From a virus, in the IMG/VR virus record IMGVR_UViG_3300031649_000001, positions 1 to 64,000 of that record: a DNA stretch of 64,000 nucleotides; one strand, written 5' to 3'. The notes under the pieces are model-generated. The model was not told the origin of the DNA and did no database searches. It was given only the letters and a program-made list of their open reading frames with translations. Below are positions 1,953-62,173 of the stretch, one piece after another. A program made the position numbers and the translations under genes. The number at the start of each line of letters is the position of its first letter. The stretch's first letter is position 1.

Positions 1953-2237
1953 GTGAGCACCGAGTCCAGCTACGGGCGCGACCTTGAGCCCGGCGAACCG
2001 AACGAACCCACGTCGTGCGTCATCGCGACCGCCGACGGCGGCCGGGTGGAGTGCGCCATCACCCGCAAAGACGCATCCACGTGGATCGCCCGGCCGCCGG
2101 AGCCCCACCACTTCCAGGAGGGCGACCGCTTCCTGATCGACCGGCTGCCCGCCGGGTGCGGCGTGGAGTTCGTGGACGTGATCGGGCCAGGGTTTGAGGA
2201 CTGGTCCGGCCGGAAGGCAACCCGCCCCGCTACGTGA
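1953..2237 (+). CDS. hypothetical protein
   Basis: GGAGG RBS with GTG at 1953; GC3-biased codons. Confidence 0.6.
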   Translation: MSTESSYGRDLEPGEPNEPTSCVIATADGGRVECAITRKDASTWIARPPEPHHFQEGDRFLIDRLPAGCGVEFVDVIGPGFEDWSGRKATRPAT

Positions 2238-2284
2238 CACGACGTTTGCACACCACACCCCACGGTGATAACGTCGTGTCTCAC
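2236..2284 (+). promoter_or_regulatory. sigma70-type promoter flanked by inverted-repeat operator
   Basis: TTGCAC-17 bp-TAACGT; GACACGACGTT / AACGTCGTGTC perfect 11-bp IR overlapping -35 and -10. Confidence 0.7.
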
Positions 2285-2292
2285 ACGGCAGT

Positions 2293-3216
2293 ATGACCGA
2301 GGGACCAGGCCACATGAAGCTCACACCAACACAGACCAAGGCGTGCAACGCGCTGCGCGCCAGCCCCACGCACAAGATCAAGTCGGGAGACGGGTGGAGC
2401 CGGGGCATCCCCCGCCCCACCGTGGAGGCCCTGGCACGCAAGGGCCTCGCGGAGGTGACGCTCACCTCGACCAAGCGCACCCGGCGCCACCGCGACGGCC
2501 GCACCTCCACCTACTTCACGATCACCTGGACCGCGGAACTCATCCCCCAGCAGCCCGGCGCCGACGAGCTGGCGGAGCTGGACCTGATCATCCGCAACCG
2601 GGAGGGCATACTGCGCCCGGCTCAGCGCGGGCACGCCGCCGCCTACGTGGCGCACACCGCGCCCGCCGTGGCGCTGGAGGGCAGCCCCGCCCGCGCCCGG
2701 GGCTACAGCGTGTGCCGCGCCTACCGCGAGGCGCTCCGGTGGCCGGTGCCCCGACTGCTGGACCAGGTGATGATGCTCCGGCACATGAGCGGCCAGGCGC
2801 CGCTCCCGCCCGGCATCCCCGCCCAGGACACCGGCGAGCGCACGGAGGTGTGGGTGCTCACCGCCAAGACCGACGGACCCCGGCCCGGCAAGGAGCTGGG
2901 CCGCGTACGCGGATCCACGCAGAACGCCGCCGCCATCGCCGGGAACAGCCTCCTCAACACGCGCGGCGGCTACCAGATGCGGCGGCTGGGCTCGCTGGAG
3001 GTGGGGCACTGGCGCGAGGACTTCCGTGCCCGTGGCATCGTGCTCCGGCTGGAGGCCGTCCCCAGCGAGGAAGGCTTCCGCGTCAGCCAGGTCACCGACG
3101 GCCAGACCCTGGTCGCCAGGCCGACCGCCGACGAGGCCAAGCGTGACGCCCTGGCCGACCTCACCGCCCTGTACGCCGCGCTCGCCCCCCAGGCGACGCC
3201 GATCCACGCAGATTGA
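2293..3216 (+). CDS. hypothetical protein
   Basis: Long GC3-biased ORF, first gene after the IR promoter (start may be 2314). Confidence 0.7.
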   Translation: MTEGPGHMKLTPTQTKACNALRASPTHKIKSGDGWSRGIPRPTVEALARKGLAEVTLTSTKRTRRHRDGRTSTYFTITWTAELIPQQPGADELAELDLIIRNREGILRPAQRGHAAAYVAHTAPAVALEGSPARARGYSVCRAYREALRWPVPRLLDQVMMLRHMSGQAPLPPGIPAQDTGERTEVWVLTAKTDGPRPGKELGRVRGSTQNAAAIAGNSLLNTRGGYQMRRLGSLEVGHWREDFRARGIVLRLEAVPSEEGFRVSQVTDGQTLVARPTADEAKRDALADLTALYAALAPQATPIHAD

Positions 3217-3227
3217 GAGAGCCCGTC

Positions 3228-4472
3228 ATGGCTGAACGAGGCCGAGACATCATCCAGGCGGCCATGGCCGCCTCCCGCCTGGGCGACGAAGCCGACCGCC
3301 TGAAGCGGGAGATCGAGGCGCAGGAGGAGCGCCCCCGCCCGCCCGCGCTCCGCTTCCCAAAGCCGATCCACGCGGAGCCGTCAGCCGCGTACATCATGGA
3401 CACGCTCCAGGCGTTCACCTCCGCCTGGGAGGACATGCTCCGCACGGGCAACGTCTCCGACCTGGCCACGGAGATCTCCGCCCGCAGCGACGAGGAGAGG
3501 GAAGACCTCCAGCGGCGGATCGCGATGATCAGGCCGGAGTACAAGCAGCGCATCCTGACCCTGGCCCAGGACGTACGGCCGGTCAACATGTGGCGCAAGT
3601 ACCGCGAGACGTACGAGCCGCACCCCGCCATGAGCCAGGCCCTGGTGAAGATGAAGTCCGACTCGGCCGTGCCCGGCGAGGTGTTCGGGCGGCTGCGCCA
3701 CCCGAACCCGACGTTCCTGCTGCCGGGCGCACCGCCGATCACCCACGCCGACGGCAACCCCGGCCGCATCCTGGCCATCTTCGTGTCCGGGGCGGTGTCC
3801 CGCAGGCTCCAGCGCGACGGCGACCCCATGCGCCTGGGCGACGCCGGGCCGGGCAACGCCTCGGTCCTGCTGGACACCCACGACCCCGCCGCGAACAGCT
3901 TCCACGCGATGGTCGTCTCCGAGGTCCACAACCCCGAAGGCACCCAGGTCATCGACATGGACTGGTGCCACCTCACCGTCCCCGTCCGGGAGGCGTTCAC
4001 CCTGGATGACCTGGTGTTCGCCATCGCCTCGGACGGCTTCAACTGGGAAGCCACCATGGGCGAACTCGCCGGAGACACCCGCTTCCAGTACCTGACGGAC
4101 GTGTCGCGGGCCACGGTGTCCCACCTGCTCTACGCGTGCTCACGGACGGCGGAGATCGACGACAAGCCGCGCGCCAGCCGACCGCCGGTCAAGCGGAAGA
4201 AGGGCGAGCCCAAGCCGCTTCCATCCGCGCGGATCCGCCGGATGGGCTGGGTGACCGGCGCCGCCATCACCGACAGCGTCCGCCGCCCGGCCGCCCACAC
4301 GGACGCCCCCGGCACCGGCAAGAGCCGCCGCCCCCACATGCGCGGCGCGCACCTGCACCTGTACCGGGTCGGCCCCGGCCGCCAGGAGATCGAACTGAAG
4401 TGGCTGGACCCCATCCCCGTGAACGCGGGCAAGGACGACGGCACCACCATCACCAACCACCCGATGCGCTGA
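3228..4472 (+). CDS. hypothetical protein with C-terminal PHxRxxH motif (AcrVA2/FinQ-like C-terminus)
   Basis: C-terminal RRPHMRGAHLHLYRVGPG...KWLDPIPVN; paralog at 44015-45223. Confidence 0.55.
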   Translation: MAERGRDIIQAAMAASRLGDEADRLKREIEAQEERPRPPALRFPKPIHAEPSAAYIMDTLQAFTSAWEDMLRTGNVSDLATEISARSDEEREDLQRRIAMIRPEYKQRILTLAQDVRPVNMWRKYRETYEPHPAMSQALVKMKSDSAVPGEVFGRLRHPNPTFLLPGAPPITHADGNPGRILAIFVSGAVSRRLQRDGDPMRLGDAGPGNASVLLDTHDPAANSFHAMVVSEVHNPEGTQVIDMDWCHLTVPVREAFTLDDLVFAIASDGFNWEATMGELAGDTRFQYLTDVSRATVSHLLYACSRTAEIDDKPRASRPPVKRKKGEPKPLPSARIRRMGWVTGAAITDSVRRPAAHTDAPGTGKSRRPHMRGAHLHLYRVGPGRQEIELKWLDPIPVNAGKDDGTTITNHPMR

Positions 4473-4833: not shown

Positions 4834-4874
4834 CCCCCAGCCCGATCCGCGCAGATCGAGAGAGGACCAAGCCG

Positions 4875-5216: not shown

Positions 5217-5279
5217 CCCTGCGCAGCCGGGCGGGCGCCCGCCCGCCCGGCCTCACCGATCCACGCAGATTGGAACACC

Positions 5280-8379: not shown

Positions 8380-9183
8380 ATGGCCGTCATACACAGACAG
8401 GGGTACGTCTGCCGCAAGGCCGACCAGATCATCCACCCCGACCACGAGACGGAGCGTCAGGTGCTGGAGCGGCACCTGTGGCAGATGCGCGGGCTGGTGG
8501 TGGCGCACCAGATGCTGGCCGACGTCTGCCCCGAGGTGGCCGCCGGGCGCGCCCGCCTCGCGCTGGCCGTCCGCAAGTGCGAGTTCACCGTCGACCACCG
8601 GCCGCTGGATCTGCGCATCCTCCTGGCCGAGTGCTTCACCTGCCCCGACCCCGAGCCCCTGGAGCCGATCATGCCCACCGACCCCGCCGAAGCAGAGGTC
8701 GTGCACGCCGCCGCCCTGAACACCATCGGCCGCCTGCGCTACTACGCCCAGCACGATCCCCATCTGCGTGGATTGGTGGAGGAGTTCGACGCCGCCGTGG
8801 CGACCGGCCTGGTGGGCGTCCCGCCCGGCGACGTCGCCGCCCGCACCCACACCGAGGCCGCGCCCACCGAGCAGGAGCGGGAGTTCGAGGAGCTGCTGTC
8901 CCAGTCCAGCCTGGGCACCCCCGGCGCCAGGGCACTGACCGAGCGGACGCGGGAAGACCAGGACTCCCAGGACCACCTGATCGTCCGCCGCGTCTTCACC
9001 CGGGCCGTGGACGACCTGTACGCGGACCAGGGGTGGGACGGGGCGGTGGAGATGCTGGCGGCCCTGCCGGGCCACTTCCTGCGCCAGGTGCGCCTGGTCC
9101 TGGCGGACATCGCCGGGATCACCAGCGAGGCCCAGGCCGCCCGGCCGCGCCCGACCGACCCGGCCCCCGAAGCCCACTCCTGA
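8380..9183 (+). CDS. hypothetical protein
   Basis: GC3-biased ORF coupled to the upstream gene. Confidence 0.7.
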   Translation: MAVIHRQGYVCRKADQIIHPDHETERQVLERHLWQMRGLVVAHQMLADVCPEVAAGRARLALAVRKCEFTVDHRPLDLRILLAECFTCPDPEPLEPIMPTDPAEAEVVHAAALNTIGRLRYYAQHDPHLRGLVEEFDAAVATGLVGVPPGDVAARTHTEAAPTEQEREFEELLSQSSLGTPGARALTERTREDQDSQDHLIVRRVFTRAVDDLYADQGWDGAVEMLAALPGHFLRQVRLVLADIAGITSEAQAARPRPTDPAPEAHS

Positions 9184-9205
9184 TCCGCGCAGATAGGACC
9201 AAGCC

Positions 9206-10350: not shown

Positions 10351-10404
10351 TGCTGCTCAAGTCCGGTATGCCGCCCCCCTCTTGACCCATCCACGCAGAT
10401 AAAA

Positions 10405-10452
10405 GAGACACGGGGTTTGCGCACGCCGCACGGTTATGCAATATTGGTGTTA
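10405..10452 (+). promoter_or_regulatory. IR-family promoter upstream of the DUF932 gene, bracketed by two 12-bp palindromes
   Basis: GAGACACGGGGTTTGCGC left arm and -35; ATCCACGCAGAT at 10389 and ATCCGCGCGGAT at 10458. Confidence 0.55.
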
Positions 10453-10520
10453 CGCCAATCCGCGCGGATCGGTCACCGGCCCCGGCCGGAGGCCACCGCA
10501 CAGAGCAGGAGGAGCACCGC

Positions 10521-11579
10521 ATGGCTCACAAAGTCGAGAAGATGTTCTCGGTCGTCGAAGGCGGCGCGAACGCCCCGCGTCACAAGCTGCCCTGGCACTA
10601 CGACGAGACCGGCGCGGACGGCCGCACGCTGATCCTTGAGCAGAACCCGGAGACCTGGGCCGAGGTCCGCCCGCTGGCCGGTCTGGACTGGGACCCGGTC
10701 GAGGAGCCCCTCTACCGCAAGACGGCCGGTGTCGGCCCGGACGGACCGACGGAGGGCTACGAGCAGGTGGAGGGCCACAAGCTGATCGTCCGCTCGGACT
10801 CCGGCCTGGTCCTGGACACCGCCCTGGAGCAGTACGAGCTGATCACCAACACCGACATGGGCGAGATCATCGACACGTTCATGACCGGCCACAAGATCGC
10901 CTTCGAGACGGCGGGCTGCCTGGACGAGGGCCGCCAGGTGTGGGCGATGCTCCAGGTCGGCGACCTCCTGGAGATCAAGGGCGACCCCAGCCCGACCGCC
11001 CGCTACATCGCACTCCTCAACCGGCACGACGGACACGGCGCGTGCAAGGCCATCGCGACCAACATCCGCATCGTGTGCGCCAACACCTGGCACTACGCCG
11101 ACACCACCTCCGAGGCCAACGCCACCACCTTCGCCTTCCACCACCGCTCCCAGTGGCGCCAGAAGGTCAAGGAGATCCAGGACGACGTGAAGAAGGCCCT
11201 GTCCGGCGCCGAGAAGGAGGCCAAGGCGTACGCCGAGCTGGCCGAGGACATGATCATGAAGTCGGTCACGCCCGAGCAGGAGAAGGCGTTCGTCGACGAG
11301 TGGGTCTACCCGACCAAGAACGAGCACAAGCTGAAGCCGAAGGCGCACGAGAACGTCACCGTGGCCCGCCAGCAGGTCGCCACGATCCTGGCCTCGGACA
11401 CGTGCGAGGGCATCCGGGGCACCGCCTACGGCCTGATGCAGGGCGCCGGTGAGTACCTGGACCACTACCGCACCTACAAGAACACCGACACCCTCATGGG
11501 CCGCACGGTCTTCACCCAGGACAAGCTCAAGATCCGCGCCCGCAACCTGGCGGTCCTGGCCGCCGACGGCCGCCTGTAG
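10521..11579 (+). CDS. DUF932 family phage/plasmid protein
   Basis: MAH..EKMF...PWH, ETAGCLDEGRQVW, LLNRHDG.GA, IRIVCANT and RGTAYG motifs. Confidence 0.85.
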   Translation: MAHKVEKMFSVVEGGANAPRHKLPWHYDETGADGRTLILEQNPETWAEVRPLAGLDWDPVEEPLYRKTAGVGPDGPTEGYEQVEGHKLIVRSDSGLVLDTALEQYELITNTDMGEIIDTFMTGHKIAFETAGCLDEGRQVWAMLQVGDLLEIKGDPSPTARYIALLNRHDGHGACKAIATNIRIVCANTWHYADTTSEANATTFAFHHRSQWRQKVKEIQDDVKKALSGAEKEAKAYAELAEDMIMKSVTPEQEKAFVDEWVYPTKNEHKLKPKAHENVTVARQQVATILASDTCEGIRGTAYGLMQGAGEYLDHYRTYKNTDTLMGRTVFTQDKLKIRARNLAVLAADGRL

Positions 11580-11708
11580 CCCAGACGCCCCGGCCGCCGC
11601 TCCTTGCCGATCCTGTAAAGACCGGGAGGGCGGCGGCCGGGCCGGTCTACCCTTTCGGCCCATCGGCCGATCCACGCAGATACACGGCGACACAGAAGGA
11701 CCCACCGC

Positions 11709-12515: not shown

Positions 12516-12516
12516 A

Positions 12517-12553
12517 CACGTGAGGGCCGGAGGTGGACTCCGGCCCTCACGTG
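12517..12553 (+). terminator. hairpin terminator
   Basis: Perfect 16-bp stem directly after the stop codon. Confidence 0.7.
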
Positions 12554-12736
12554 GATCAAGGAGGTTGCGCCCGGGAACCGTAGCGCACCGCCCGGCCGGG
12601 CGGCCGGGCGGGCGGTGGCTCCCCCGGACGGACGGCCGCCCGGCCGGGCAACACAAGCCATGCGTACAAAGATCACGTGTGATAATGTCGTGACACACGG
12701 CATCGATAAGATCGAGCGAATCGAGGATCAGGAACG

Positions 12737-12982: not shown

Positions 12983-12983
12983 C

Positions 12984-14868: not shown

Positions 14869-15588
14869 GTGTCTGAATCCACGCTCAACCGCACCACCAA
14901 AACGACAGCGATCAGCTACCTGCTCGGCGTCCCGCTGGCCCGGACCACCCGCGCGGTGATACTGGCCATCGGCGGCATCAAGGGCGGCATCGGCAAGTCC
15001 ACCACGGCCATCTACCTGGCCTACGTGTGGGCGGCCATGGGCCTCAAGGTGCTCATCATCGACGCCGACCCCAAGTCCGGCACCAGCCGGAAATGGAACC
15101 GGCGCGCCAACGAGCGCGTCGCTCAGGGGCGCGGCGAGAAGCTGCCCTTCACCGTCAAGACCCACCCCTCCGAGGACCTGGAGGAGCGGATCCTGGATGA
15201 GGGCTGGCACGAAGAGTTCGACCTGATCATCGTCGACACGGGCGGCGACAACGACCGCATCTTGCAGGCCGCGTACCGCATCGCGGACTACATGCTGCTC
15301 ACCGCCAGCCCCAGCCCTGTTGACCTGGACACGCTTGCCGACTCTGCGCGGACCGCGATCGGCAAGACAGAAGCACGGGACATCCCGGCGTCCATCCTCC
15401 TCACCGGCGTGAAGTCGTCGCGTATGGCGGAGGACGCCAAGACCGAGATGCGCAAGGCAGGCATCCCCGTGCTGTCCAACGTCGTGAAGCACCGCACCGC
15501 CTACCAGCTTGCGTACACGGAGTCGGTGAAGGGGTTCCACGACTACCCCGCCGTCCAGCATGAGCTGGACGCACCCCGAGAGGAATAA
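14869..15588 (+). CDS. parA: ParA family partition ATPase
   Basis: Deviant Walker A KGGIGKST, IIDADP and IIVDT. Confidence 0.9.
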   Translation: MSESTLNRTTKTTAISYLLGVPLARTTRAVILAIGGIKGGIGKSTTAIYLAYVWAAMGLKVLIIDADPKSGTSRKWNRRANERVAQGRGEKLPFTVKTHPSEDLEERILDEGWHEEFDLIIVDTGGDNDRILQAAYRIADYMLLTASPSPVDLDTLADSARTAIGKTEARDIPASILLTGVKSSRMAEDAKTEMRKAGIPVLSNVVKHRTAYQLAYTESVKGFHDYPAVQHELDAPREE

Positions 15589-15594
15589 CACCGC

Positions 15595-16008
15595 ATGAGC
15601 ACCAAGAACACGCGCGCCTCCGGCCTCGGCTCGCTGCTCACCAACCCGGCGCCGACGGCCGACGAAGACCCGGACTTCGCAGCCCACCAGGCACGCCAGG
15701 GCGGCGACACGGAGGGCGGGCCCGGACAGGAGGCGGACACCGCCCCGGCGGAGCCCGCCCGGCTGCCCGGCCGCACTCGCACCAGCCGCACCACCGGCGC
15801 CCTGGCCACCCGGGGCGGCGGGGCCGTACTGCCCCGCGAGCGCACCCGGCGCGTCGCCAAAGAGAAGCTGACCGTCCAGATCCCCGCGTCGCTGATCGAC
15901 GCGCTCACCGCCCTGGTCGAGCGCGACGACACCCGCCGCTACGACGAGGTGGAGGACGCGCTGCGTGCCCACTTCGAGAAGAAGGGGATCAAAATCGATG
16001 AGGACTGA
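15595..16008 (+). CDS. probable RHH centromere-binding protein (type Ib partner)
   Basis: Follows parA; disordered N-terminus with SGLGSLL; C-terminal KLTVQIPASLIDAL...EVEDAL strand-helix-helix. Confidence 0.6.
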   Translation: MSTKNTRASGLGSLLTNPAPTADEDPDFAAHQARQGGDTEGGPGQEADTAPAEPARLPGRTRTSRTTGALATRGGGAVLPRERTRRVAKEKLTVQIPASLIDALTALVERDDTRRYDEVEDALRAHFEKKGIKIDED

Positions 16009-21729: not shown

Positions 21730-22019
21730 TGGAAGGCGCCCCGCTCTACTCCGTCGCGGTCGGTGCCGGGCTTCAGGTGGTGCTGATGCTCGTGTCCGTG
21801 TGCGCGCCCCGGCGCGTGGGGGCCGGGACGTTCTACCGGCTTTCGGCCGTCATCCAGTTCTTCGTGATGGGCGCGCTGGCCGGGGCGGGCACCTGGTGGG
21901 CGCTTATGCCCGGCGGCATCGCGGTGGCCTTCGCCGTCGCCGCCTGGACCGTCCCCGCCCGCGAGCGGCGGAACGCCCACCTGGCCTCCCTGATCCACGC
22001 AGATAGGACCGACCCCTGA
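21729..22019 (+). CDS. small membrane protein
   Basis: Hydrophobic segments; translationally coupled. Confidence 0.6.
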   Translation: MEGAPLYSVAVGAGLQVVLMLVSVCAPRRVGAGTFYRLSAVIQFFVMGALAGAGTWWALMPGGIAVAFAVAAWTVPARERRNAHLASLIHADRTDP

Positions 22020-23606: not shown

Positions 23607-23885
23607 ATGCGCCCTATGGGAGCTGACGACCGCTTCCCGCCGCCGCGCCTGACCGACGACGACCGGGCCCGGCTGGCCCTGGAAGCCCTGGGGGACGGCA
23701 CGGCCACCCGGCTGCGGATGCTGACGGGCTGGTCGGTGGACGACATGGCCCGCGCCTGCAACGTCCCCACGTGGCGCCTGGCGCTCTGGGAGGCGGGCGC
23801 CGGGGCCCCGGCGCCCGCGACGGCTGTAAAGCTCTGGAAGGTACTCGTGCGAGCCTGCACGACCCCGCCGCCCGGCGCTCCCTGA
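23607..23885 (+). CDS. XRE-like HTH protein
   Basis: LRMLTGWSVDDMARACNV....LALWEAG. Confidence 0.65.
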   Translation: MRPMGADDRFPPPRLTDDDRARLALEALGDGTATRLRMLTGWSVDDMARACNVPTWRLALWEAGAGAPAPATAVKLWKVLVRACTTPPPGAP

Positions 23886-23983
23886 CAGGGGGCGGGGCCG
23901 CGTGTCCGTCACGGAGCGCATCGGATCAGTCACCTAGAGCTATCTTCGGGTAGAGGCGAACCCCCCTGATCCACGGAGATCCG

Positions 23984-24799
23984 ATGACCCCCAAGACGGC
24001 CGCCGCGCCCGACACGGACGCCAACCTCCACTCCCTCCTGGAGAAGCTGGAGCGCTGGCCCCTGAGCAAGCTGACCCAGTTCCCCGGCAACCCCAACGAG
24101 GGCGACGTGGACGCCATCGCGGAGTCGCTGGCGGAGAACGGCCTGTTCGAGCCGATCATCGTCCAGCGCTCCACCGGCCACATCCTCAGCCACAACCACG
24201 TCACGCAGGCCGCCGAGCGCCTGGGCTGGTCCCACCTGGACGTGATCCCCGTGGATGTGGACGACCAGCGCGCCAAAAAGATCGTCGCCGCCGCCAACCG
24301 CACCGCCGAACTCAGCACCCGCAACGACTTCCTGCTCTACGAACTCCTCGCCGACATCGAGGACCTGGAGGGCACCGGCTACGACGACGTCTTCCTTGAG
24401 GAGCTGACCGCCCGCGTGGAGCCGGAGCTGCCCGAGGTCGGCGAAGAGGACGACGACGGGGGCGTGGTGATGGAGGCCGGGCCGTCCGGCGCCCACTACG
24501 CCGAGACCCCCGAGCAGGAGAGCACCCGGGGCAACCGCGTCGCCGGGGAACAGTCCCTCGCCGCCAAGGGCCTCGCCGAGATGGTGTTCGTGATGGAGGT
24601 CGACGCCAAGTCCCAGCTCCTGCTGGACATCGAGGCCATGCGCGAGCACCTCGGCGACCGGCCCACCGGCCCCCTGGTGTGCGACGCCGTCCGTATCGCC
24701 AACGTTGTCCTTGAGGCCGCCAAGCACGACAGCCCCCCGCTGGAGTGGGGCAAGATCCTCGGGCAGGCCGCCATCCGCGTGGACGGAGACGCCGCATGA
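23984..24799 (+). CDS. ParB N-terminal-domain protein of the DNA-modification/packaging operon
   Basis: LTQFPGNPNEGDVDAIAESLAENGLFEPIIV...ILSHNH...AAERLGW...AANRTAEL. Confidence 0.8.
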   Translation: MTPKTAAAPDTDANLHSLLEKLERWPLSKLTQFPGNPNEGDVDAIAESLAENGLFEPIIVQRSTGHILSHNHVTQAAERLGWSHLDVIPVDVDDQRAKKIVAAANRTAELSTRNDFLLYELLADIEDLEGTGYDDVFLEELTARVEPELPEVGEEDDDGGVVMEAGPSGAHYAETPEQESTRGNRVAGEQSLAAKGLAEMVFVMEVDAKSQLLLDIEAMREHLGDRPTGPLVCDAVRIANVVLEAAKHDSPPLEWGKILGQAAIRVDGDAA

Positions 24800-26731: not shown

Positions 26732-27115
26732 ATGATCGAGTGGACCGGCGTTCTCGCCCTCCTGGACAAGCCCACCGGCGACGGCCGCGCGCTTGCCACC
26801 CCCGAACGCCTGCTCTCCCGGCCGCTCCCCCTGCCGCTGTTCACCCTTGACGGCCCCGTCGGCTCCATCAACCAACTGTCCATCCACGGGGATCAGCTCC
26901 GGGCGGAGGGCACCGCCCGCGACGGCATCCTCACCCCGGAGCGCCCCGAACTCCCGGTCGGCCTGGACGCCGACCAGACCGAGTACGAAGCCTTCGGCCA
27001 GGGCGTCATCTTCACCCGCTGGCGCATCGTCGGCGCCACGCTCCTCACCGACGCCACGGCGTCGGGGCCGTGGCCGGAGGCCGTGATCCGCCTGAAGGAG
27101 GACGGCCGTGATTGA
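26732..27115 (+). CDS. small protein homologous to the prohead-protease-like domain
   Basis: WTGVL...PTGDGRALATP...RPLPLPL...WRIVGATLL matches the 39231-39740 region of the head polyprotein. Confidence 0.6.
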   Translation: MIEWTGVLALLDKPTGDGRALATPERLLSRPLPLPLFTLDGPVGSINQLSIHGDQLRAEGTARDGILTPERPELPVGLDADQTEYEAFGQGVIFTRWRIVGATLLTDATASGPWPEAVIRLKEDGRD

Positions 27116-29027: not shown

Positions 29028-29057
29028 GCCCATCCACGCAGATGAAGGGAGGCGCCG

Positions 29058-32300: not shown

Positions 32301-32873
32301 ACTTACGGCAATGGGTAATCACACGCCGTGCACGTGTGCTAACTTCGTGTCTGCGGTGCACGGGACGGGCACGCTACCTCCCCAAGGACAGCCGACCCCC
32401 GCCCCGCGCACCGGCTCCGCCTTCCCTTTCTTCGACGAGCGGGGGACAGGCGGGGCGCGCGGTTCCCCTGCTGTCCCGACGGCCAGAGCGGGTGGGGTAC
32501 GGCGTCGGAGTTGGTGTCGATCAGGTGAGACGGGCCGCCCCCTCGCGGGGGTGGCCCCACCGCCCCCCTCCGGATTCAGGCCGGGGAGGGGCGGCGGTCA
32601 GCACCCTGGCCCGCGCTGGGCGATCAGCCGAGCGTCCGCAACGCGCACGCCAGGATGGGCGCCCTAGGCGTCAGGACCCGCCCCGCCACGTGCCGGGCGG
32701 GTCCGCCCCTTTCCGGGTGCGTTGATCCGCGCAGATGGACACGCGTGAGCGGCCGGAAGCGGAGCGTGATCATCCAATGCCGGTGGCACGTGCACGCTTC
32801 ACGCAGGAAACCCACACAGGTGATTGCGACAAACGGGTGCGCTCCGTGTGCAGTCGGTAGCTAATGTGACTGG

Positions 32874-34088: not shown

Positions 34089-34309
34089 CAACCTGTCCGG
34101 GCCGCCGCGTCTCCTCGCGCCTTCTTGCCAGCCTGACCGGCCCGCCCGCTCCGCCCCGTCCCCGTGGCTGCCCCCGACCCCACCGGCCGCCAGCCCCGCC
34201 GGACGGCGCTCCACCGCTACGGTGCTGTGATGGAGACCAAGCCACTCATGACCTCCCATACAGAACGATCCACGCAGATCAGCCCGTGTCGGCCGGGGAG
34301 GTGTCTCCG

Positions 34310-34948
34310 GTGACCCTCATCCACGCGGATCAGGACGACGACATCGACATCGTCCACCGCCAGATGCCCGTGAACGCCGACGGCCAGGCCACCGGCGCCA
34401 CCATCGTCACCCACGCCTCCGGCCTCCACGAACTCTGGGCGTACTACGCTTCCTGCTGCTGCTGCACCACCCGCGAGCCCTTCTTCAGCCCCGCCGACCG
34501 GGACGCCTGGGCCGAGGTGCACCGCGCCGACCATCCCACCCACGCCATGCAGCTGACGACCGAGCCCTGGGACTTCCGCACGCCGCCCTGGGTCGCCGCC
34601 GACGGACTGCCCCTGACCCCGCCCCGGAGCCTGATCACCATGACCTCAGCCCCCCCGCCGGACCCCTTCAAGGACTTCCCGCCCGGCTTCCCCCGCCCCG
34701 ACTGGGACGACGACACCCTGCTGAGGGTGATGGAGCGCCGCACCCAGCTCCGGGACGGCTGCCCCAAGCACTACGGCAACGCCAACACCCAGCTCACCTT
34801 CTACAAGGAGCTGTTCGTCAACGACCCGGACACCGGCACCCACGCGCCGACCATGGCCGTCTACGCGGACGGCTGCATGGTCAACTGGCGGATCGACGTG
34901 AAGGACGAGGAGCCCCGCTACGAGCAGGCCCCCCAGGGCTCCTACTGA
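34310..34948 (+). CDS. hypothetical protein
   Basis: GGGGAGG RBS with GTG; GC3 bias; CCCC run. Confidence 0.65.
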   Translation: MTLIHADQDDDIDIVHRQMPVNADGQATGATIVTHASGLHELWAYYASCCCCTTREPFFSPADRDAWAEVHRADHPTHAMQLTTEPWDFRTPPWVAADGLPLTPPRSLITMTSAPPPDPFKDFPPGFPRPDWDDDTLLRVMERRTQLRDGCPKHYGNANTQLTFYKELFVNDPDTGTHAPTMAVYADGCMVNWRIDVKDEEPRYEQAPQGSY

Positions 34949-42301: not shown

Positions 42302-42799
42302 ATGCCGACCAGCACCGACGATGAGGTCATCCCCGCAGAGCTCAACAAGGGGCACCTCATCCCCGCCACGTACGAGGGCACCCTGCGTACGTTCCTCATG
42401 CTCAACCGCGACCAGGTCCCCGTCGCCTCCGGCGCCATGTTCACCGACGGCCGCATCGTCGTCATGTCGCAGACCGGCCGCACCTGCCACCGGTACGCCA
42501 ACACCGGCGCCCTGATGGAGGACTGGTGGGGCAAGGGGATGCTGCTGTGGTGTCTGGAGCGCGGCGGCCTCGACTACGACGTGGCGCCGCGCCGGTTCAT
42601 CTACGAGCGGACCGAGGACGAGACCGGCACCAGCGGTGAGGGCATCGCCGTGGAGGGCGTGGTCTTCCCCCACGGGGGCGTGGTGCTCATGTGGCTGGGC
42701 GAGGTCCGCTCGATCGTGGAGTGGTCGTCGATCGAAGAGGCCCTGGGCATCAGCGGCCACGAGGGGCGGACCCGGGTGAAGTGGCTCGACCCTGCCTGA
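42302..42799 (+). CDS. hypothetical actinophage protein
   Basis: SG.G.AVEGVVF..G.V...W; a degenerate copy of the motif lies in the N-half. Confidence 0.65.
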   Translation: MPTSTDDEVIPAELNKGHLIPATYEGTLRTFLMLNRDQVPVASGAMFTDGRIVVMSQTGRTCHRYANTGALMEDWWGKGMLLWCLERGGLDYDVAPRRFIYERTEDETGTSGEGIAVEGVVFPHGGVVLMWLGEVRSIVEWSSIEEALGISGHEGRTRVKWLDPA

Positions 42800-42967
42800 T
42801 CCACGCGGATCAGACGGCCCCCCAGCCTCCCAACAGGTTGTGACTCCGATACGACGCCGGGGGGCCACCCGACAGACCCGCACACAGGGCGCCTTCTTGC
42901 CGTCCCGCTCTGTGCCCGGTTGCACACCGAACGTTAGCGGCCCGGCGCGGCCGGTGAAGGAGGAACC

Positions 42968-45223: not shown

Positions 45224-45644
45224 GACCCCCCTCTTCCATCTGCGCGGATCGGGCCGCGTCCTCCCGTTCCCAGCGCTCCACCTCGGACGGGAGCGCGTAC
45301 AGGATGTCGGCCATCCGGGTCGGGCGCTCCCGGCCGACGGCCGCCCACTCCGTACGCGGGCGCCCCACCACGGAGCCGTCCGCCACCATCTCCGCCAGCA
45401 GCTCCCGCAGCCGGTTGCGCTTGAGCGCCCGGCCCACGTGCCCCAGCGGCAGCGACAGCCCACGCAACTCGGCGATGCGTTCGGCGACTTCGAAGTCCGT
45501 CCACGGCGTCTCGTTCACGCCGAACGGGTCCGGGTTGTCCGGAGGAGCGTACGGGTTGGGCGGCTGGGGGCCGACGGCCGCCAGCACATCCTCCCGGGTG
45601 GCCTCGTACCGCTGGTCGGAATGCTCACTACGCGGCACCGGCAC
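45201..45644 (-). CDS. hypothetical protein
   Basis: Coupled ORF. Confidence 0.55.
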   Translation of the reverse strand: MPVPRSEHSDQRYEATREDVLAAVGPQPPNPYAPPDNPDPFGVNETPWTDFEVAERIAELRGLSLPLGHVGRALKRNRLRELLAEMVADGSVVGRPRTEWAAVGRERPTRMADILYALPSEVERWEREDAARSAQMEEGGHGEEERG

Positions 45645-46544: not shown

Positions 46545-46613
46545 GGCGGGTCTCCTGTGTTCTATCTGCGGGGATGGGGGAGGGGCGGCCGGTCGGCCGC
46601 CCCTGGGAGTGGA

Positions 46614-47115: not shown

Positions 47116-47246
47116 TCTGGCACCTGATCCACGCGGATAAGAGCCCGCTTGAGCACGAAGCGTGAGCGGTCGGCTACTCTACGTAGAACGCTCTGCTGGT
47201 TGATGGGCCGAGGGCACGGTAACGAGATCCCGAGAGGGCCCATGCC

Positions 47247-52686: not shown

Positions 52687-52761
52687 TCCCATCCACGCAG
52701 ATCGACCCTCCGGGCGGGCGGCTGACCGGCCGCCCGCCCGGCCGTACGTCCTGGAGGCGCC

Positions 52762-55700: not shown

Positions 55701-56100
55701 CACCGTCGCGCCGGACACACCGGGCTGGTACCGCGAGATCGGGGGCAACCTCAAGACCGACTCCTACGTGAACATGAACTCCGGCGGCCAGTCCGGCGGC
55801 CCCTTCACCTCCTGGGCGGCCGACCCCAAGGCGCTGCGGGCGGGCGCCGGAGGCGGCGGACTGTCCGTCGCCGAGGGCGCCAACGGCCGCCTGGGGGTTG
55901 CCACGCTGGTGGCCGGGACCGTGACCGTGGCCAACACCAGCATCACCGCCACCAGCCGGATCTTCATCACGCGGTCCGCCGCCGGGGGCACCCTCGGCCA
56001 CCTCACCGTCACCAAGAACGCGGGCGTGGGCTTCACCGTCACCAGCTCCAGCCCGACCGAGACATCCACCGTGGAGTGGTTCGCGGTGGAGCCGTCGTAG
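52762..56100 (+). CDS. fibre/spike protein: His-repeat shaft plus right-handed beta-helix (pectate-lyase-like) domain
   Basis: Nine HxADTTxVHGI repeats; HGATGDDVTDD...VYLPNGRY; GN/G-rich coils. Confidence 0.8.
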   Translation: MALAEYDDVYWFPDGTLARNIPARVFPEHSNEFATLYTDATGDTELPNPLNTDNDGRLTFWAEAGIYWIHIDSESIRVGVGTSEEGVTPAQVAAAIAAHNADHTDVHGIVETADLATDAELAAHAADTTSVHGIANTALLETQAGAQAKADAAQAAAEANASADAAGQISEARGELEEDIAAGDAAQAAALAAHAADTTNVHGIPDTANIPTNAEFEQVQADLAAHEADTTAVHGIANTADLATDADVAAVASGLADHVADTTGVHGIANTADLLTTADLEQYATDAELAAHVADTTAVHGITDTADLVTSADLAGLATDAEVAAVQGNLDAHAADTTAVHGIANTADLVTDADLAGLATEAALEAHASATTDVHGITDTGDLLTQADLDEYATDAELAAHAADTTAVHGIANTADLETATGAQTKADAARDAAIADAATKYLNRLTGGTVTGDVIIEGANLTVQKPDDAGGYRLRTTGSSNDLDVSLETFVSFFANPDFSGTQTPLMRWEAAGPHLIGHVQIGSNPYDSVFDFDAAAAAATFNGDLTVTGALNANGVTDWINARTHGATGDDVTDDIDALEDAVQACPLGGVVYLPNGRYRTSRTLYVPPGVTVMMPHANLMAVPGITDPPCSIKPLDEFTGPAAIGFLNQTAGGYPAIPAEHRLVNVMIDGSAYTAAALDGIQAKGNIQNICMYGCTIRYMSGNGIYTDIGADSVFPYSWRLYRVMIDNCDGHGFAFNVMTDITLFDCQSIGNGANGFYLRNLANSQMSLCRAEWNGNHGYAFTGDWGEGAGAGALVASGCSTDRNGWDGIHVDATGTTPIVFNGLMLRRDGRNNGAGGGGYAALATYAATIPIVVDGLTVYPGTDDNGTGTSSPEMGVNLQAVTEAFTLDNAYIHVATTPLNDDGTNLRVQLGPNIIRATGPTTAPVVAPVSAWNWAGTATAQQEAAADNVLETLIAGEDFPRSVIRADGMVVFGGGTVAPDTPGWYREIGGNLKTDSYVNMNSGGQSGGPFTSWAADPKALRAGAGGGGLSVAEGANGRLGVATLVAGTVTVANTSITATSRIFITRSAAGGTLGHLTVTKNAGVGFTVTSSSPTETSTVEWFAVEPS
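53050..54012 (+). repeat. nine intragenic AAHAADTTAVHGIANTADL repeats
   Basis: Direct reading of the protein and DNA (gccgacaccacggcggtccacggcatc variants). Confidence 0.9.
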
Positions 56101-60171: not shown

Positions 60172-60227
60172 CCGCCCCGCCCCCCGGCCGCCCGGCCGGG
60201 GGGCCGATCCACGCAGATAGAGAGCGC

Positions 60228-60707: not shown

Positions 60708-60739
60708 TCCACGCAGACAGAGAGAGGACCAAGCCAGCC

Positions 60740-60985
60740 ATGATCCTGCGCCAGTACCGCCTGACCCTGACCCACTACCGCGACAGCAAGGTGATCGGGG
60801 AGCCGGTCATCGTGCCCGCCCCCCACCACGCCGGTGACCTCCTGGTCCACGACGGCGACGTGTGGGAGGTGATCCGCTGCGAGACCCAGCTCCCCGACCC
60901 GCGCGAGACGGCCGAGGAGGCCCGCGAGCCCATCGAGGTGAACGTCGTGGTCGGCGAGGTCGCGGACCACCTGACCGACCGCTGA
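60740..60985 (+). CDS. hypothetical protein
   Basis: GAGAGGA RBS; bounded by 12-bp motifs. Confidence 0.6.
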   Translation: MILRQYRLTLTHYRDSKVIGEPVIVPAPHHAGDLLVHDGDVWEVIRCETQLPDPRETAEEAREPIEVNVVVGEVADHLTDR

Positions 60986-61016
60986 TCCACGCAGACCGAG
61001 AAAGAGGACGCACCGC

Positions 61017-61628
61017 ATGACGCACACCTGGGGCCCGGACCACATCATCCACGTGGACCTGGAAGATGACCGCGACCGCGCCAGCGACGACTACAGCCGG
61101 TACGGCTCCTACGTCGGCGCCCGCGAACTCAGCTTCCAAGACACCTGGGCCAAGCCCGAGCTGAAGCCCGCTGAGCCCATCGCGTTCGCGGCGACCGCCT
61201 GGACGGTGGCCTGCCCGCCCATCATGTCGCCCGGCCTGGTGGACTGGCGCCCCGACATCCACAAGATCGAGATCGGCTACGACGAAGACGGCCACGACCT
61301 GATGGCCACCGTGGAACTCCCCCTTGAGCACCACCAGTTGGCCGCCAAGATCCCCTACCAGTACCAGGACTGGGCCCGGCACAACCACTGGCGCGGCGAC
61401 GACTACGTCTACCTGATGCACGGCGGCGTCCGCAGGGGCAAGCCCACCGTCACCGCCCTGGTCACCGTCCAGCACATCCTCACCTCGGTCACGCTGGTCA
61501 CCCCGCCCGCCCACCCCACCGGCCGCGCCCTGGTGGACGCGGCCCTCCAGTCCGTGGAACTGACGGCCGCCGCCCTCAACGCGGAGCTTCCGGAGATCAT
61601 CAACCGGGTGCAGGGGCGGGACCGATGA
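61017..61628 (+). CDS. hypothetical protein
   Basis: GAGGA RBS; SRYG.Y...FAA.AW..A.PP.MSPG. Confidence 0.7.
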   Translation: MTHTWGPDHIIHVDLEDDRDRASDDYSRYGSYVGARELSFQDTWAKPELKPAEPIAFAATAWTVACPPIMSPGLVDWRPDIHKIEIGYDEDGHDLMATVELPLEHHQLAAKIPYQYQDWARHNHWRGDDYVYLMHGGVRRGKPTVTALVTVQHILTSVTLVTPPAHPTGRALVDAALQSVELTAAALNAELPEIINRVQGRDR

Positions 61629-62173
61629 GCCGCGCCCGCCGGTACCCGGTCGGCGGCGACCCCGGCCCCATCCCCGCAGATAAGCCGGTGCCGACCAAGA
61701 ACCAGATCCTGGTCATCGTGGACTCGGCCCGCGACCCCATGACCCGGCCCGCCATCCTGCTGGCGGCAGCCCGCCTGTTCGACGTGCAGCCGCCCGGCCA
61801 GCGCGCAGAAGAGGCCACCCGGTGGGCCCGCCGGGTGATGAACTACCCGGCCGCCGAACGCCTCCTGGACCGGATGGAGATCGACGAGCTGATCACCGGC
61901 TCGGAGGCGTGGGAGTGGGCCCAGGTGGGCCACCCCATCGGCGGCGCCCAGGCGCGGACCACATACTTCTTCACCGCCCGCCAGGCCCTCGCGCTCCGGG
62001 GGCGTAACGAACACCACCGGGACGACGTCCTATGGGGGCAGGCGGAGCGCGCCGCCGACTCGCTGATGAGGAAGCTCCACAGCGGCGAGTGGGAGCGCGC
62101 CAGGGACACGGCGTACGCCGCCCTCCTGAAAGGGCTGCCCGCTCCATACACAGACGCACAGGAGCCCTCATGA
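61625..62173 (+). CDS. hypothetical protein
   Basis: ATGA-coupled. Confidence 0.65.
   Translation: MSRARRYPVGGDPGPIPADKPVPTKNQILVIVDSARDPMTRPAILLAAARLFDVQPPGQRAEEATRWARRVMNYPAAERLLDRMEIDELITGSEAWEWAQVGHPIGGAQARTTYFFTARQALALRGRNEHHRDDVLWGQAERAADSLMRKLHSGEWERARDTAYAALLKGLPAPYTDAQEPS

Follow-up and report, generated by a model that had tools for sequence, protein, structure and literature searches.

The window, i.e., the whole stretch of 64,000 nucleotides analysed here, belongs to a replicon of 111,261 bp in which the head of the contig repeats its tail. The element is a Streptomyces virus of approximately 111 kb that looks like a phage-plasmid, since it encodes a small ParA with a ParG-like ribbon-helix-helix (RHH) adaptor and an Xer-like tyrosine recombinase, and its lineage is found as genome-sized stand-alone contigs in Streptomyces assemblies: a 106-kb contig that is phage throughout in S. 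andamanensis and, on size alone, contigs in two further assemblies. No DNA methyltransferase is encoded on the element. Two relatives (G001 and G005; 65–88% identity) were compared with this genome (G000), and the three genomes are collinear. The genes and promoters that bear on the interpretation are as follows.

14947..15588, plus strand: small ParA-type partition ATPase, 213 aa (Pfam AAA_31, 40.8 bits, over cut-off; full-length NCBIfam ParA_partition match, 96.8 bits, under that model's cut-off)
15595..16008, plus strand: ParG-like adaptor, 137 aa, candidate binder, directly downstream of the small ParA; N-terminal RxxGLGSLL peptide and C-terminal RHH pattern (KLTVQIP, helix, helix)
23607..23885, plus strand: Xre-type HTH protein, 92 aa, candidate binder (HTH_3, 19.9–21 bits, under cut-off)
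23984..24799, plus strand: ParB-N domain protein, 271 aa, candidate binder, first gene of the TET/JBP operon (PHROG ParB-like, 1.9e-35)
71121-71849, minus strand: triple-HTH protein, further candidate binder
110342-110587, minus strand: stand-alone GntR winged helix, further candidate binder
10405..10460, plus strand: dyad-symmetric, SigA-like promoter cassette, one of 20; others in the window lie at 2234, 17432, 30667, 47114 (minus strand), 57658 and 58833

The adaptor is assigned to the RHH class from pattern and context only; its predicted model has a strand-helix-helix layout (pLDDT about 70), and both the N-terminal peptide and the C-terminal pattern are conserved across the lineage alignment. 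The preliminary description had named it as a possible binder, a candidacy strengthened by the ParA gene directly upstream; the PHROG match confirms the ParB-N nature of another protein that it had named, whereas no ParB signal was found in its third choice, at 13463. The ParB-N model is of low confidence (pLDDT 60), with fold matches to ParB/Noc/KorB N-domains, KorB structures among them, and a DNA-binding part that is not defined; AANR stands where the GERR box is expected, and the C-terminal part is conserved. The operon that it heads (23984-28049) starts 3 nt past a copy of the dyad described below and continues with glycosyltransferase-like, DEDD-type exonuclease and TET/JBP dioxygenase (66 bits) genes. 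The Xre-type protein is 85% identical in G001 and 64% in G005; a near-site at 23552 lies approximately 45 nt upstream of its gene, and G005 has an exact site at the equivalent place. Three HTH candidates compared with the solved stoperator repressor have no sequence likeness to it. That several conserved small DNA-binding candidates are encoded is counted in support of the regulatory network proposed below.

Scattered over the window are 26 exact copies of ATCYRCGYRGAT, against 0.01 expected from dinucleotide shuffles, none of 100 of which reached this count. All 26 coordinates in the preliminary description match this sequence, and the six one-mismatch copies that it listed are present. The whole replicon holds 41 exact copies, and 98 with at most one mismatch (reversed-pattern control, 0). 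ATC-N6-GAT occurs 67 times on the replicon, 59 occurrences fitting ATC-Y-V-CG-B-R-GAT, while ATC/GAT at other spacings gives counts of 1–29. Because the 12-mer is enclosed by symmetric flanks, the full element spans 18 bp as the dyad YYN-ATCYVCGBRGAT-NRR. It matches 59 times, at 58 unique sites, the matches at 18 and 110911 being one site counted twice through the overlapping contig ends. The wider family takes in four one-mismatch copies (23969, 46564, 61670, and 55386, the last of which had not been listed previously). Only 3 of the 59 sites have a CACGTG core, so the resemblance to parS that had been drawn from it is weak. The symmetry extends into the flanks in each class of site, the half-sites abut with no spacer, and four thymines per site are fixed by the invariant outer triplets, ATC and GAT. 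Positions 4/9 and 5/8 show no complementary co-variation (32 and 17 observed, 36.3 and 21.4 expected); half-sites that vary independently suggest that the dyad is read by a two-fold symmetric, dimeric DNA-binding protein and is not a hairpin. Sites in the window, with one at the contig end, are listed here.

18..29: dyad ATCCCCGTAGAT, identical in G001; the same site as 110911
3202..3213, plus: boundary site supplying the closing codons (IHAD-stop) of gene 2314-3216, next ATG 17 nt on; kept in G001 and G005
4845..4856, plus: boundary site, stop codon 11 nt before and start 4875 18 nt after; kept in G001
5259..5270, plus: boundary site preceded by a GC-rich hairpin and followed by RBS and GTG 5280; relatives have a near-site in ...GAC
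9183..9194, plus: boundary site, TGA-fused, ATG 9206 11 nt on; kept in G005
10389..10400, plus: site preceding promoter cassette 10405 by 4 bp; kept in G001
10458..10469, plus: site just 3' of the -10 box of cassette 10405, 69 bp from 10389; kept in G001 and G005
11670..11681, plus: boundary site, ATG 11709 27 nt downstream
21993..22004, plus: boundary site within the closing codons of gene 21729-22019, ATG 22019 14 nt on; kept in G001
23969..23980, plus: boundary site ATCCACGGAGAT, ParB-N start 3 nt on, its GGAG serving also as RBS; kept in G001
26882..26893, plus: site between the glycosyltransferase-like and TET/JBP genes; also in G005
29032..29043, plus: boundary site 4 nt past a stop, ATG 29058 14 nt on; kept in G001 despite flanks only 50% identical
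32725..32736, plus: intergenic site 3' of the large terminase gene
34268..34279, plus: boundary site, GTG 34310 30 nt on; kept in G001 with CAC to CGC
34319..34330, plus: site in codons 4-7 of gene 34310-34948; kept in G005
42799..42810, plus: site fused to TGA where the rightward head-assembly operon ends; kept in G001
45238..45249, minus: flipped boundary site in the leftward operon, 14 nt ahead of the start of gene 44015-45223
46564..46575, minus: boundary site of the leftward operon, preceded by stop and hairpin and followed by RBS and ATG 46544
47127..47138, minus: site in the divergent region ahead of the capsid gene, 12 bp upstream of leftward cassette 47114; kept in G001 and G006 with CAC to TGC
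52691..52702, plus: site 4 nt past a stop codon, with a terminator-like hairpin next; kept in G001 and G005
60207..60218, plus: boundary site with a hairpin before it and RBS and ATG after it; kept in G001
61670..61681, plus: site 41 nt past the stop of gene 61017-61628
2075, 4223, 6870, 8762, 19142, 21580, 24245, 30239, 40499, 43551, 55198, 55386, 55666: deep intragenic sites, no orientation bias
58776 (...CTGAT), 60707 and 60985 (...AGAC), plus: one-mismatch junction copies

Dyads are 4.4 times as dense outside genes as inside, a placement that could in part reflect freedom from coding constraint and not function. They lie in the gaps between stop codon and RBS, beside terminator hairpins, in convergent intergenic regions and a short way upstream of promoter cassettes. 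The fusion to stop codons noted earlier recurs in the relatives, TG directly preceding 12/38 boundary sites in G000, 12/30 in G001 and 9/26 in G005; many start-proximal copies lie 3–30 nt ahead of the start codon, with the RBS in between. Orientation had been said to follow transcription, with a flip at 45238 and 46564 in the leftward operon. The flip is confirmed and the bias is real, but it is confined to boundary sites, specifically to the degenerate positions of those just upstream of an RBS: the sense-strand form ...GCAGAT is found at 26/33 sites within 35 nt of a start codon versus 24/61 other boundary sites. Since it is concentrated there, the bias may stem from the setting of translation initiation instead of a polar protein-DNA complex; it can be explained if GTG or GG is avoided immediately before the true RBS.

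Seven dyads lie exactly 4 bp upstream of one of the 20 promoter cassettes, one lies 12 bp upstream and one just downstream, and 12 cassettes are without a site. No dyad overlaps a -35 or -10 box of the 20, so the dyads cannot be the primary promoter operators; the inverted arms of the cassettes themselves may bind the main repressor.

The dyad belongs to the phage and not to the host. The S. andamanensis assembly contains 48 matches, 39 of them on the 106-kb phage contig and 9 in the other ~8.8 Mb, the latter being close to the chance level (roughly 10, estimated from base composition); more distant capsid relatives have no dyad sites. Boundary sites are retained in the relatives (25/31 in G001, null 0.23; 11/20 in G005, null 0.12), changes among the retained sites are confined to degenerate positions, and the change rate at invariant positions is about half that at degenerate ones (0.117 versus 0.211). 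The boundary dyads are thus under purifying selection. Intragenic sites number 28, against a mean of 1.0 (maximum 4) in synonymous-codon shuffles; the rare-codon usage reported for them is borne out by GAT, which makes up 6.5% of Asp codons, and by GCA, at 3.5% of Ala codons, whereas ATC accounts for 98% of Ile codons. Despite this strong excess the deep intragenic dyads are mostly not conserved, and several toggle GAT/GAC among relatives; any model must account for sites that are over-represented yet unconserved. In all three genomes the 10-kb block with the partition cassette is poor in sites (2, 1 and 1 versus 5.3, 3.8 and 3.6 expected; P about 0.1 in each, not significant alone), an observation also listed in support of a regulatory network.

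The distribution on phage alone, the retention in relatives and the independent halves bear out the earlier proposal of an element-wide, element-specific set of protein-readable sites, and the interpretation in which that proposal was placed is partly supported. From these features we infer that the dyad is most likely the docking site of a viral regulator. The preferred reading, to which we assign a probability of roughly 0.45, is that the dyads form an operator or stoperator-like network by which transcription units are silenced or insulated. One phage-encoded, two-fold symmetric protein would bind all of the 18-bp dyads, which would mark the borders of expression units, and the bound protein would block or insulate transcription running from one unit into the next. 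Life as a circular plasmid-prophage, the most likely state of the element, would create a need for silencing, and such a network could keep lytic genes quiet during plasmid maintenance. It would resemble the networks of Cluster A mycobacteriophages, R4-like Streptomyces phages and P1 C1 except that its site is symmetric. A symmetric dimer offers no obvious polar block; this, the tie of the orientation bias to RBS-proximal sites and the absence of dyads from -35 and -10 boxes count against silencing.

The main rival, which we consider unlikely, is that the partition cassette at 14947-16008 uses the dyads as a dispersed centromere, and perhaps also as a global operator set, with its RHH adaptor binding them as a dimer of dimers in the manner of the scattered N15 centromeres or of an omega/KorB-like segregator-repressor. 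It draws on the evidence for a plasmid lifestyle, on a small ParA followed by a 137-aa protein with an N-terminal peptide of the ParA-stimulating type and an RHH-pattern C-terminus, on a putative DNA-reading strand (KLT.Q.P) that is almost invariant in 12 lineage members, and on the absence from 12500-17700 of any visible local repeat array fit for a dedicated centromere. The omega repressor of pSM19035 reads ATCAC heptads, an inverted pair of which we take to resemble ATCCAC-GTGGAT. Type Ib adaptors, however, normally autoregulate at their own centromere, and the ~3 kb upstream of parA contain no dyad, even when one mismatch is permitted; 58 sites far exceed the number in known centromeres, and neither stop-codon fusion nor start-proximal placement has a role in segregation. 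The adaptor, moreover, has no match in Pfam, PHROG or PDB and is overall only 45–67% identical between genomes with the same motif. It is quite improbable that the dyads instead direct the operon at 23984-28049 to modify bases at gene boundaries, with ParB-N as the reader. ParB-N, the exonuclease and the dioxygenase do share an operon that begins beside a dyad, the C-terminal part of ParB-N is conserved, and with no methyltransferase encoded a JBP-like action on the four fixed thymines is conceivable; against this stand the poor ParB-N model with its altered GERR box and, in an insensitive test, the lack of dispersed exact dyads at 40 viral loci with ParB-N homologues. The known phage TET systems act on short, frequent contexts, not on 18-bp sites.

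Stop fusion, the RBS-preceding position and the ...GCAGAT bias would also suit a start-associated mRNA signal, at least for the start-proximal copies, that acts in translation initiation or coupling and not in DNA binding, like the SAS of Cluster K. We give this little credence: the dyad symmetry extends into the flanks in each class, sites occur also ahead of promoters and terminators, in the gaps of convergent gene pairs and, in either orientation, within genes, GTG/GG avoidance can account for the bias, and the distance to the start varies from 3 to 30 nt, whereas SAS contain the SD and lie 3–7 bp from the start (PMC3203893). Least probable of all is that the dyads are recombination or cassette-border sequences for module exchange, or scars of small mobile elements. 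Several ends of G000/G001 homology blocks fall within a few bases of a site, some genes absent from G001 are bracketed by sites, and the Cluster O 17-bp repeat flanks one gene (PMC4351075). Yet 7 block ends fall no more than 20 nt from a site versus 5.7 ± 1.9 for random gene ends, no excess beyond that expected from both features being at gene ends, and this count largely refutes the proposal; 58 targets for an Xer-like recombinase would scramble a genome that is collinear in three phages, and tyrosine-recombinase cores, unlike the dyad, have a spacer between half-sites.

A layout of dispersed sites is already known from other phages (PMC9283540, PMC10276819, PMC4351075), and the stoperators, KorB operators and N15 centromeres invoked previously were the right set for comparison. 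Stoperators, compared here in the Cluster A mycobacteriophages L5 (gp71) and TipsytheTRex (PMC9283540) and the Streptomyces phages R4 and phiJoe (PMC10276819), are likewise phage-specific, with dozens of copies of one short site throughout a temperate genome, concentrated in short intergenic gaps and associated with the direction of transcription. Each is an asymmetric 13-mer recognized by a monomer that has two DNA-binding domains, and the early promoter is overlapped by one of them (PMC9283540, PMC10276819); the dyad, in contrast, is an 18-bp symmetric site without -35/-10 overlap, its orientation bias lying in degenerate RBS-proximal positions. Cluster A also includes extrachromosomal phages with par systems.

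The 17-bp Cluster O repeat (TGTTCGG-N3-CCGAACA) has invariant arms, a 3-bp spacer and no orientation, in phages that are not evidently temperate (PMC4351075). Like the dyads, these repeats are symmetric and present in >30 copies genome-wide, mostly intergenic or near gene starts and about a third intragenic, in genomes that encode a ParB-domain protein; the dyads differ in sequence, host, degenerate inner positions, lack of a spacer and association with plasmid-maintenance genes. The SAS, asymmetric and in one orientation, occupy only the non-structural half of the genome (PMC3203893). They resemble the dyads as short repeats just upstream of start codons that sometimes overlap the upstream stop and are absent from the host genome, whereas the dyad lies upstream of the RBS, is symmetric and occurs genome-wide.

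In KorB-OB of RK2, the omega heptads of pSM19035 and the dispersed SopB sites of N15, a partition protein reads palindromic or paired sites at several points of the replicon and also represses genes; these systems comprise 4–12 sites or promoter arrays and include a site in the operon itself, whereas here no site is near parA and sites are five times more numerous. P1 C1 is a single plasmid-prophage repressor with 17 or more operators dispersed over a genome of ~90–110 kb, and on the network reading the present element would be alike in setting one repressor at many scattered operators. The P1 operators are asymmetric, number under 25 and lie at promoters, unlike the approximately 58 symmetric sites found here mostly at gene junctions.

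The 12-bp palindrome reported in the preliminary description is present at all 26 of the coordinates listed there as exact matches, compared with an expectation of 0.01 from shuffled sequence. The whole record, a single contig of 111,261 bp and 71% G+C of which the window is the first 64 kb, contains 41 exact matches; allowing one mismatch gives 98, versus 0 for a reversed-pattern control. The matches are real, but the pattern had been drawn too narrowly: 59 of 67 ATC-N6-GAT sequences fit ATC-Y-V-CG-B-R-GAT, so the half-site ATCCCC is used as well. When these 59 sites are aligned, pyrimidines occupy upstream positions -3 (50/59) and -2 (54/59), and purines occupy downstream positions +2 (54/59) and +3 (50/59). 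This flank symmetry is present in boundary sites, which lie at gene junctions, and in intragenic sites alike, which makes the element an 18-bp dyad, YYN-ATCYVCGBRGAT-NRR; CTG-ATCCACGCAGAT-AGG is a sequence carrying it. Because the site at 18 is the same as the site at 110911, there are 58 unique copies.

The enrichment withstands codon-preserving shuffling; synonymous shuffles of every called gene yield 1.0 intragenic sites (maximum 4), versus 28 observed. Site density is 0.32 per kb in coding and 1.38 per kb in non-coding DNA. In the 8.9-Mb assembly of Streptomyces andamanensis PCU 347, which carries a related phage (contig G005), the phage contig accounts for 39 of 48 matches, and the 9 in the remaining 8.8 Mb approximate the number predicted from base composition. 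The host chromosome has no similar density, and the motif thus belongs to the phage; with chromosomal matches at chance level, a host factor or host regulon is rejected. Viral contigs scanned with a 14-mer showed no more than isolated chance matches, except in G001, an IMG/VR relative, and the motif strings occur in the searched literature only as unrelated oligonucleotides, with no relevant context.

Complementary bases pair positions 4 and 9 in 32/59 sites (36.3 expected under independence) and positions 5 and 8 in 17/59 (21.4 expected). Complementarity does not exceed independence, which indicates no selection for self-complementarity, and a hairpin or cruciform is rejected because the halves lack complementary co-variation. 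This pattern argues for two half-sites that would be read separately by a two-fold symmetric protein, as opposed to an RNA or DNA hairpin.

Conservation separates the two classes of site. G001 (108,671 bp) is collinear with the present genome at ~70-88% nucleotide identity and has 39 sites; G005 has 39 sites at 65-84% identity, and a related fragment in Streptomyces sp. NPDC051907 has 13. No sites occur in relatives whose capsids are 64% or 49% identical. Retention was scored as keeping all eight invariant positions at the homologous position, with matched random 12-mers as the null. Boundary sites are retained in 25/31 cases in G001 (null 23%) and 11/20 in G005 (null 12%); deep intragenic sites, well inside genes, are retained in 4/14 in G001 (null 26%) and 4/14 in G005 (null 16%). 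Substitutions inside retained sites run at 0.211 at degenerate versus 0.117 at invariant positions, so that changes concentrate on degenerate positions (CAC to CGC or TGC, for example), and some sites are retained despite flanks just 50% identical. Several intragenic sites differ among relatives by a synonymous GAT/GAC change alone; GAT accounts for 6.5% of Asp codons in this genome. Judged from these alignments, boundary sites are under purifying selection and intragenic sites are many but short-lived. The phyletic pattern against three motif-less capsid relatives (G002-G004) does not discriminate because only structural genes are common to them.

Several arrangements recur among the boundary sites:

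9183, 89406 and 90662, among others: TGA-TCC...GAT-RBS-start
52691, 86218 and 93779: stop codon, site, then terminator hairpin
5259, 46564 and 60207: hairpin, site, RBS, start codon
84137: TGA-TCCGCGCGGA-TCA, spanning two convergent stop codons
A further arrangement: hairpin, site, then promoter

The preliminary description also held that the asymmetric form mostly follows transcription. This is borne out at boundaries: sites with the ATCTGC half on the downstream side outnumber the reverse by 18:1 in this genome (P = 3e-4 when its A>T sense-strand skew is taken as the background) and by 53:11 across four genomes, the effect being confined to degenerate positions; it does not extend to deep intragenic sites (3:5 here, 15:13 over four genomes). 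The bias is concentrated in sites no more than 35 nt from a start codon (26/33 versus 24/61 for other boundary sites; Fisher P = 4e-4), and GCGGAT or GTGGAT endings predominate in sites ahead of terminators or promoters. A simple explanation would be that GTG or GG is disfavoured just upstream of a true RBS; the asymmetry need not stem from a polar protein-DNA complex.

The genome also contains 20 copies of a promoter cassette, a dyad-symmetric, SigA-like unit distinct from the dyad site, with the order GAGACAC..GTTTGC, 17-18 nt, a TGn-extended -10 box, and GTGTCAC:

2234, 10405, 17432, 30667, 47114 (minus), 57658 and 58833: promoter cassettes in the window
91062 (minus), 93701 (minus), 95666, 97646, 103136 (minus), 103534 (minus) and 104353 (minus): promoter cassettes beyond the window
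105823 (minus), 106627 (minus), 106702, 107448, 108097 and 109109: promoter cassettes beyond the window, continued

A dyad site lies exactly 4 bp upstream of seven cassettes and 12 bp upstream of one, and the remaining 12 have none; one cassette has a second dyad site just downstream. None of the -35/-10 boxes of the 20 cassettes is covered by a dyad site. Since many cassettes lack a site and none is covered, site and promoter are separate modules. The inverted arms of the cassettes may constitute a second operator family. Most cassettes have a GC-rich 5' stem-loop downstream and a start codon ~90 nt downstream, and many of the small genes that they drive are absent from G001. A near-identical GC-rich hairpin family (the CCGCCCGGCCGGGCGG type) follows many genes (14811-14847, 20098, 35683, 35930, 49096, 50405, 51989 and others); these hairpins are probably terminators, and several are paired with a dyad site.

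The window encodes a phage structural module:

30807-32300: large terminase
36333-38450: portal protein
38437-42072: MuF-NUDIX head protein
47247-49094: major capsid protein
50517-51983: major tail protein
52762-56100: beta-helix tail fibre

The capsid protein is at most 37% identical to that of the closest cultured phage in the collection, and in megablast searches of phage and plasmid collections the window had no relatives, one 55-bp match aside. The stretch matched (1693-1747) shares 93-95% identity with unannotated DNA of the conjugative Streptomyces plasmids NZ_CP108495.1 and NZ_CP109316.1 and does not correspond to a tRNA gene. A search for tRNA genes across the window was negative. The tail fibre gene (1112 aa) includes a run of diverged ~102-nt repeats at 53014-54075 and a K1-lyase C-terminal domain at its end, and relatives align to just half of the protein. 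A leftward six-gene module (43371-47018, minus; promoter cassette at 47114) separates the capsid gene from the genes for head assembly; it is largely replaced in G001 and G005 and includes a phage Zn-finger DNA-binding protein (46614-47018).

The lifestyle evidence points to a circular, P1-like phage-plasmid. The first 243 nt of the contig (1-243) repeat the last 368 nt (110894-111261) except for a 107-bp GC-rich indel, extra in the tail copy; the genome is therefore essentially complete, and circular or terminally redundant. The repeat represents either a circular or terminally redundant genome assembled with a length variant or a short terminal repeat. Maintenance and recombination functions are suggested by two genes:

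14947-15588: small ParA ATPase, 213 aa (AAA_31, 40.8 bits; NCBIfam ParA_partition matched full-length)
~67281-68237: tyrosine recombinase, with best scores against Xer-type models

The ParA lacks an N-terminal HTH, and the gene for a 137-aa adaptor begins 7 nt 3' of it. Searching bacterial genomes with the capsid protein located the phage in two strains, S. andamanensis PCU 347 (106,095-bp contig) and Streptomyces sp. NPDC051907 (27.7-kb contig); the former contig is phage DNA end to end, stand-alone and collinear with the present genome. Relatives of the ParB N-domain protein considered below (ParB-N), at 57-81% identity, lie on contigs of 103-115 kb, known by size alone; S. longwoodensis has one of 109,842 bp and Streptomyces sp. 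NPDC059278 one of 103,011 bp, and the others are JGI and Logan contigs. Among public sequencing runs the whole phage is listed only for a root metagenome, which may be where this DNA came from, and no RNA run is listed as containing it.

Two further loci are of kinds associated with plasmids. Three 42-nt direct repeats at 1096-1265, each with the 18-bp palindrome TGTCGGGYTAACCCGACA, adjoin a leftward gene (382-1047, minus) with a weak match to RepL (plasmid replication), which is present in G005 at 73% identity and absent from G001; together they look like an iteron-type plasmid origin. A DUF932 protein (10521-11579; 136 bits) is of a kind typical of plasmids and integrative elements, and its gene's promoter cassette is the only one with dyad sites on both sides.

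The best-supported reading is that a single dimeric DNA-binding protein encoded by the phage docks at the dyads, which would form a network along the borders between expression units, and that, once bound, it would impede or insulate transcription for as long as the element persists as a plasmid. In its favour are the positions of the conserved sites, the plasmid-prophage lifestyle and, by analogy, published precedents (PMC9283540, PMC10276819, PMC4351075). Also in its favour, the 10-kb block with the par cassette, whose expression maintenance requires, is short of sites in all three genomes, a depletion that is consistent though weak. Counted against such a network are the promoter cores, which sites never overlap, and the cassettes' own inverted arms, which could bind the main repressor.

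Candidate readers conserved in all three full genomes (the present one, G001 and G005) are as follows:

15595-16008: ParG-like adaptor, encoded next to ParA
23607-23885: Xre-type HTH protein, 92 aa, below the Pfam cut-off
23984-24799: ParB-N protein, at the head of an operon
71121-71849, minus: triple-HTH protein
110342-110587, minus: GntR winged helix, 81 aa, above the cut-off, recognition helix nearly invariant

The adaptor had been described as an RHH protein. An RHH-like pattern and the predicted layout fit that description: 12 lineage members share a conserved N-terminal RxxGLGSLL and a conserved C-terminal KLTVQIP-helix-helix, with a variable region in between, and the predicted model has an extended segment followed by two helices. 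Family and structure searches returned no match, so that the protein is ParG-like by inference only. A ParB-like protein proposed at 13463 showed no ParB signal. In a weak model (pLDDT 60) ParB-N has the N-domain fold of ParB/Noc/KorB; the protein carries AANR instead of GERR and scores below the Pfam cut-off; its C-terminal part (24570-24740) has a conserved ..LAEMVFVMEV, helix, helix in a strand-helix-helix pattern and might, on a model of low confidence there, be a ribbon-helix-helix DNA-binding module fused to the ParB N-domain. The Xre-HTH start has a near-site ~45 nt upstream, and G005 has an exact site at the same place. Its recognition-helix region is identical in G001 and changed in G005, where half-site preference is TGC>CGC>CCC>CAC versus CAC>CGC>TGC>CCC; this co-shift makes the Xre-HTH a possible reader, as a lead and not as a test. 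The Zn-finger and RepL-like proteins are excluded as binders because each is missing from one motif-bearing genome. As a check for an L5 gp71-like immunity repressor, three HTH candidates were compared with the solved Cluster A repressor (PDB 7R6R/7TZ1), and none matched it. When viral contigs were scanned for co-occurrence with the Xre-HTH, ParB-N and triple-HTH proteins, G001 alone was returned, and a search of 401 Streptomyces genomes returned G005 alone. ParB-N alignment to viral and metagenome contigs gave only N-domain homologues and one 1.4-kb fragment; no dispersed dyads were found in 40 ParB-N-homologue loci by an insensitive test. Atlas look-ups of two conserved proteins without assigned function gave no DNA-binding lead.

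The main rival to the docking network is that the dyads are the dispersed centromere of the ParA/RHH partition system, perhaps a silencer too, in the manner of N15, omega or KorB. A ParA with a ParG-like adaptor whose DNA-reading strand is nearly invariant would suit this role, but the par cassette has no adjoining dyad site or repeat family and the block around it is the site-poor one; no dyad site lies within ~3 kb of parA, and no local centromere-like repeat was found either. A minor alternative, in which the dyads direct base modification by the ParB-N/TET-JBP operon, draws on that operon (23984-29666), which encodes ParB-N, an Rv2179c-like 3'-5' exonuclease (DEDD), a 257-aa protein and a TET/JBP dioxygenase (66 bits) and runs into the terminase genes. 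The phage encodes no methyltransferase, which is counted for this alternative: no C5 or N6/N4 DNA methyltransferase was found anywhere in the genome, so that the candidate substrates of the dioxygenase are thymine and host-methylated cytosine. A start-associated signal acting in the mRNA is another minor alternative. Recombination or mosaic borders are rejected; 7 homology-block ends lie near sites, versus 5.7 +/- 1.9 for random gene ends.

At the speculative end, it is conceivable, though very improbable, that a methyltransferase-free ParB-N/glycosyltransferase-like/TET-JBP operon puts a hypermodified base at the dyads and so chemically punctuates transcription units. In kinetoplastids base J lies at transcription-unit ends, and the dyad marks would then be its bacterial-virus counterpart. 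In a less exotic version the ParG-like adaptor would read all 58 dyads and couple phage-plasmid segregation to genome-wide silencing.

Dispersed single-motif networks are a recurring trait of actinophage, phage-plasmid and plasmid genomes, and to our knowledge a mechanism is established for Cluster A stoperators only. The present lineage is convenient for study: its site is symmetric and clearly under selection at unit borders, the candidate readers are few, and natural carriers such as S. andamanensis PCU 347 make binding, transcription and plasmid stability testable. It also documents a little-known group of ~105-111-kb Streptomyces phage-plasmids with a ParA/RHH partition system, an Xer-like recombinase and a TET/JBP operon. 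Should the reader prove to be the partition adaptor or ParB-N, segregation or DNA modification would be linked to gene silencing.

Among known systems, the stoperator networks of Cluster A and R4 are the nearest in mode of working, with many dispersed copies enriched in short intergenic DNA. Stoperators are asymmetric ~13-bp sites, oriented in correlation with transcription and bound by a monomeric two-domain repressor, with one operator overlapping the early lytic promoter (PMC9283540); the present dyad, in contrast, is a symmetric 18 bp, has no promoter-overlapping site, and does not require a polar complex to account for its asymmetry. Closest in form are the Cluster O repeats, a 17-bp dyad TGTTCGG-N3-CCGAACA (PMC4351075), which are dyad-symmetric, number more than 30 genome-wide and are part intergenic, part intragenic; they differ in repeat sequence, and no relatedness links those phages to this one, given the capsid divergence from every cultured phage in the collection. 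The 12-bp core within an 18-bp dyad agrees with the 13-16-bp palindromes of ParB-parS and KorB-OB systems. In those systems, however, a ParB with an HTH and a CTP-binding GERR box is partnered with ParA and sites lie at or near the par locus, whereas here ParB-N has AANR and resides in a TET/JBP operon, ParA is paired with another protein, and the par block is poor in sites. Type Ib partition (ParG, omega) shares the order of a small ParA followed by a small adaptor gene, but its ribbon-helix-helix adaptor binds autoregulatory centromere repeats by the operon, and none lies beside the cassette here. The Cluster K SAS are asymmetric 13-mers that contain the SD, lie 3-7 bp from the start in one orientation and are found in the non-structural half only (PMC3203893); the present dyads differ in being symmetric, upstream of the RBS at 3-30 nt, and genome-wide. 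Set beside these systems, the dyad network is a well-controlled variant of a general kind of system already known and introduces no new principle.
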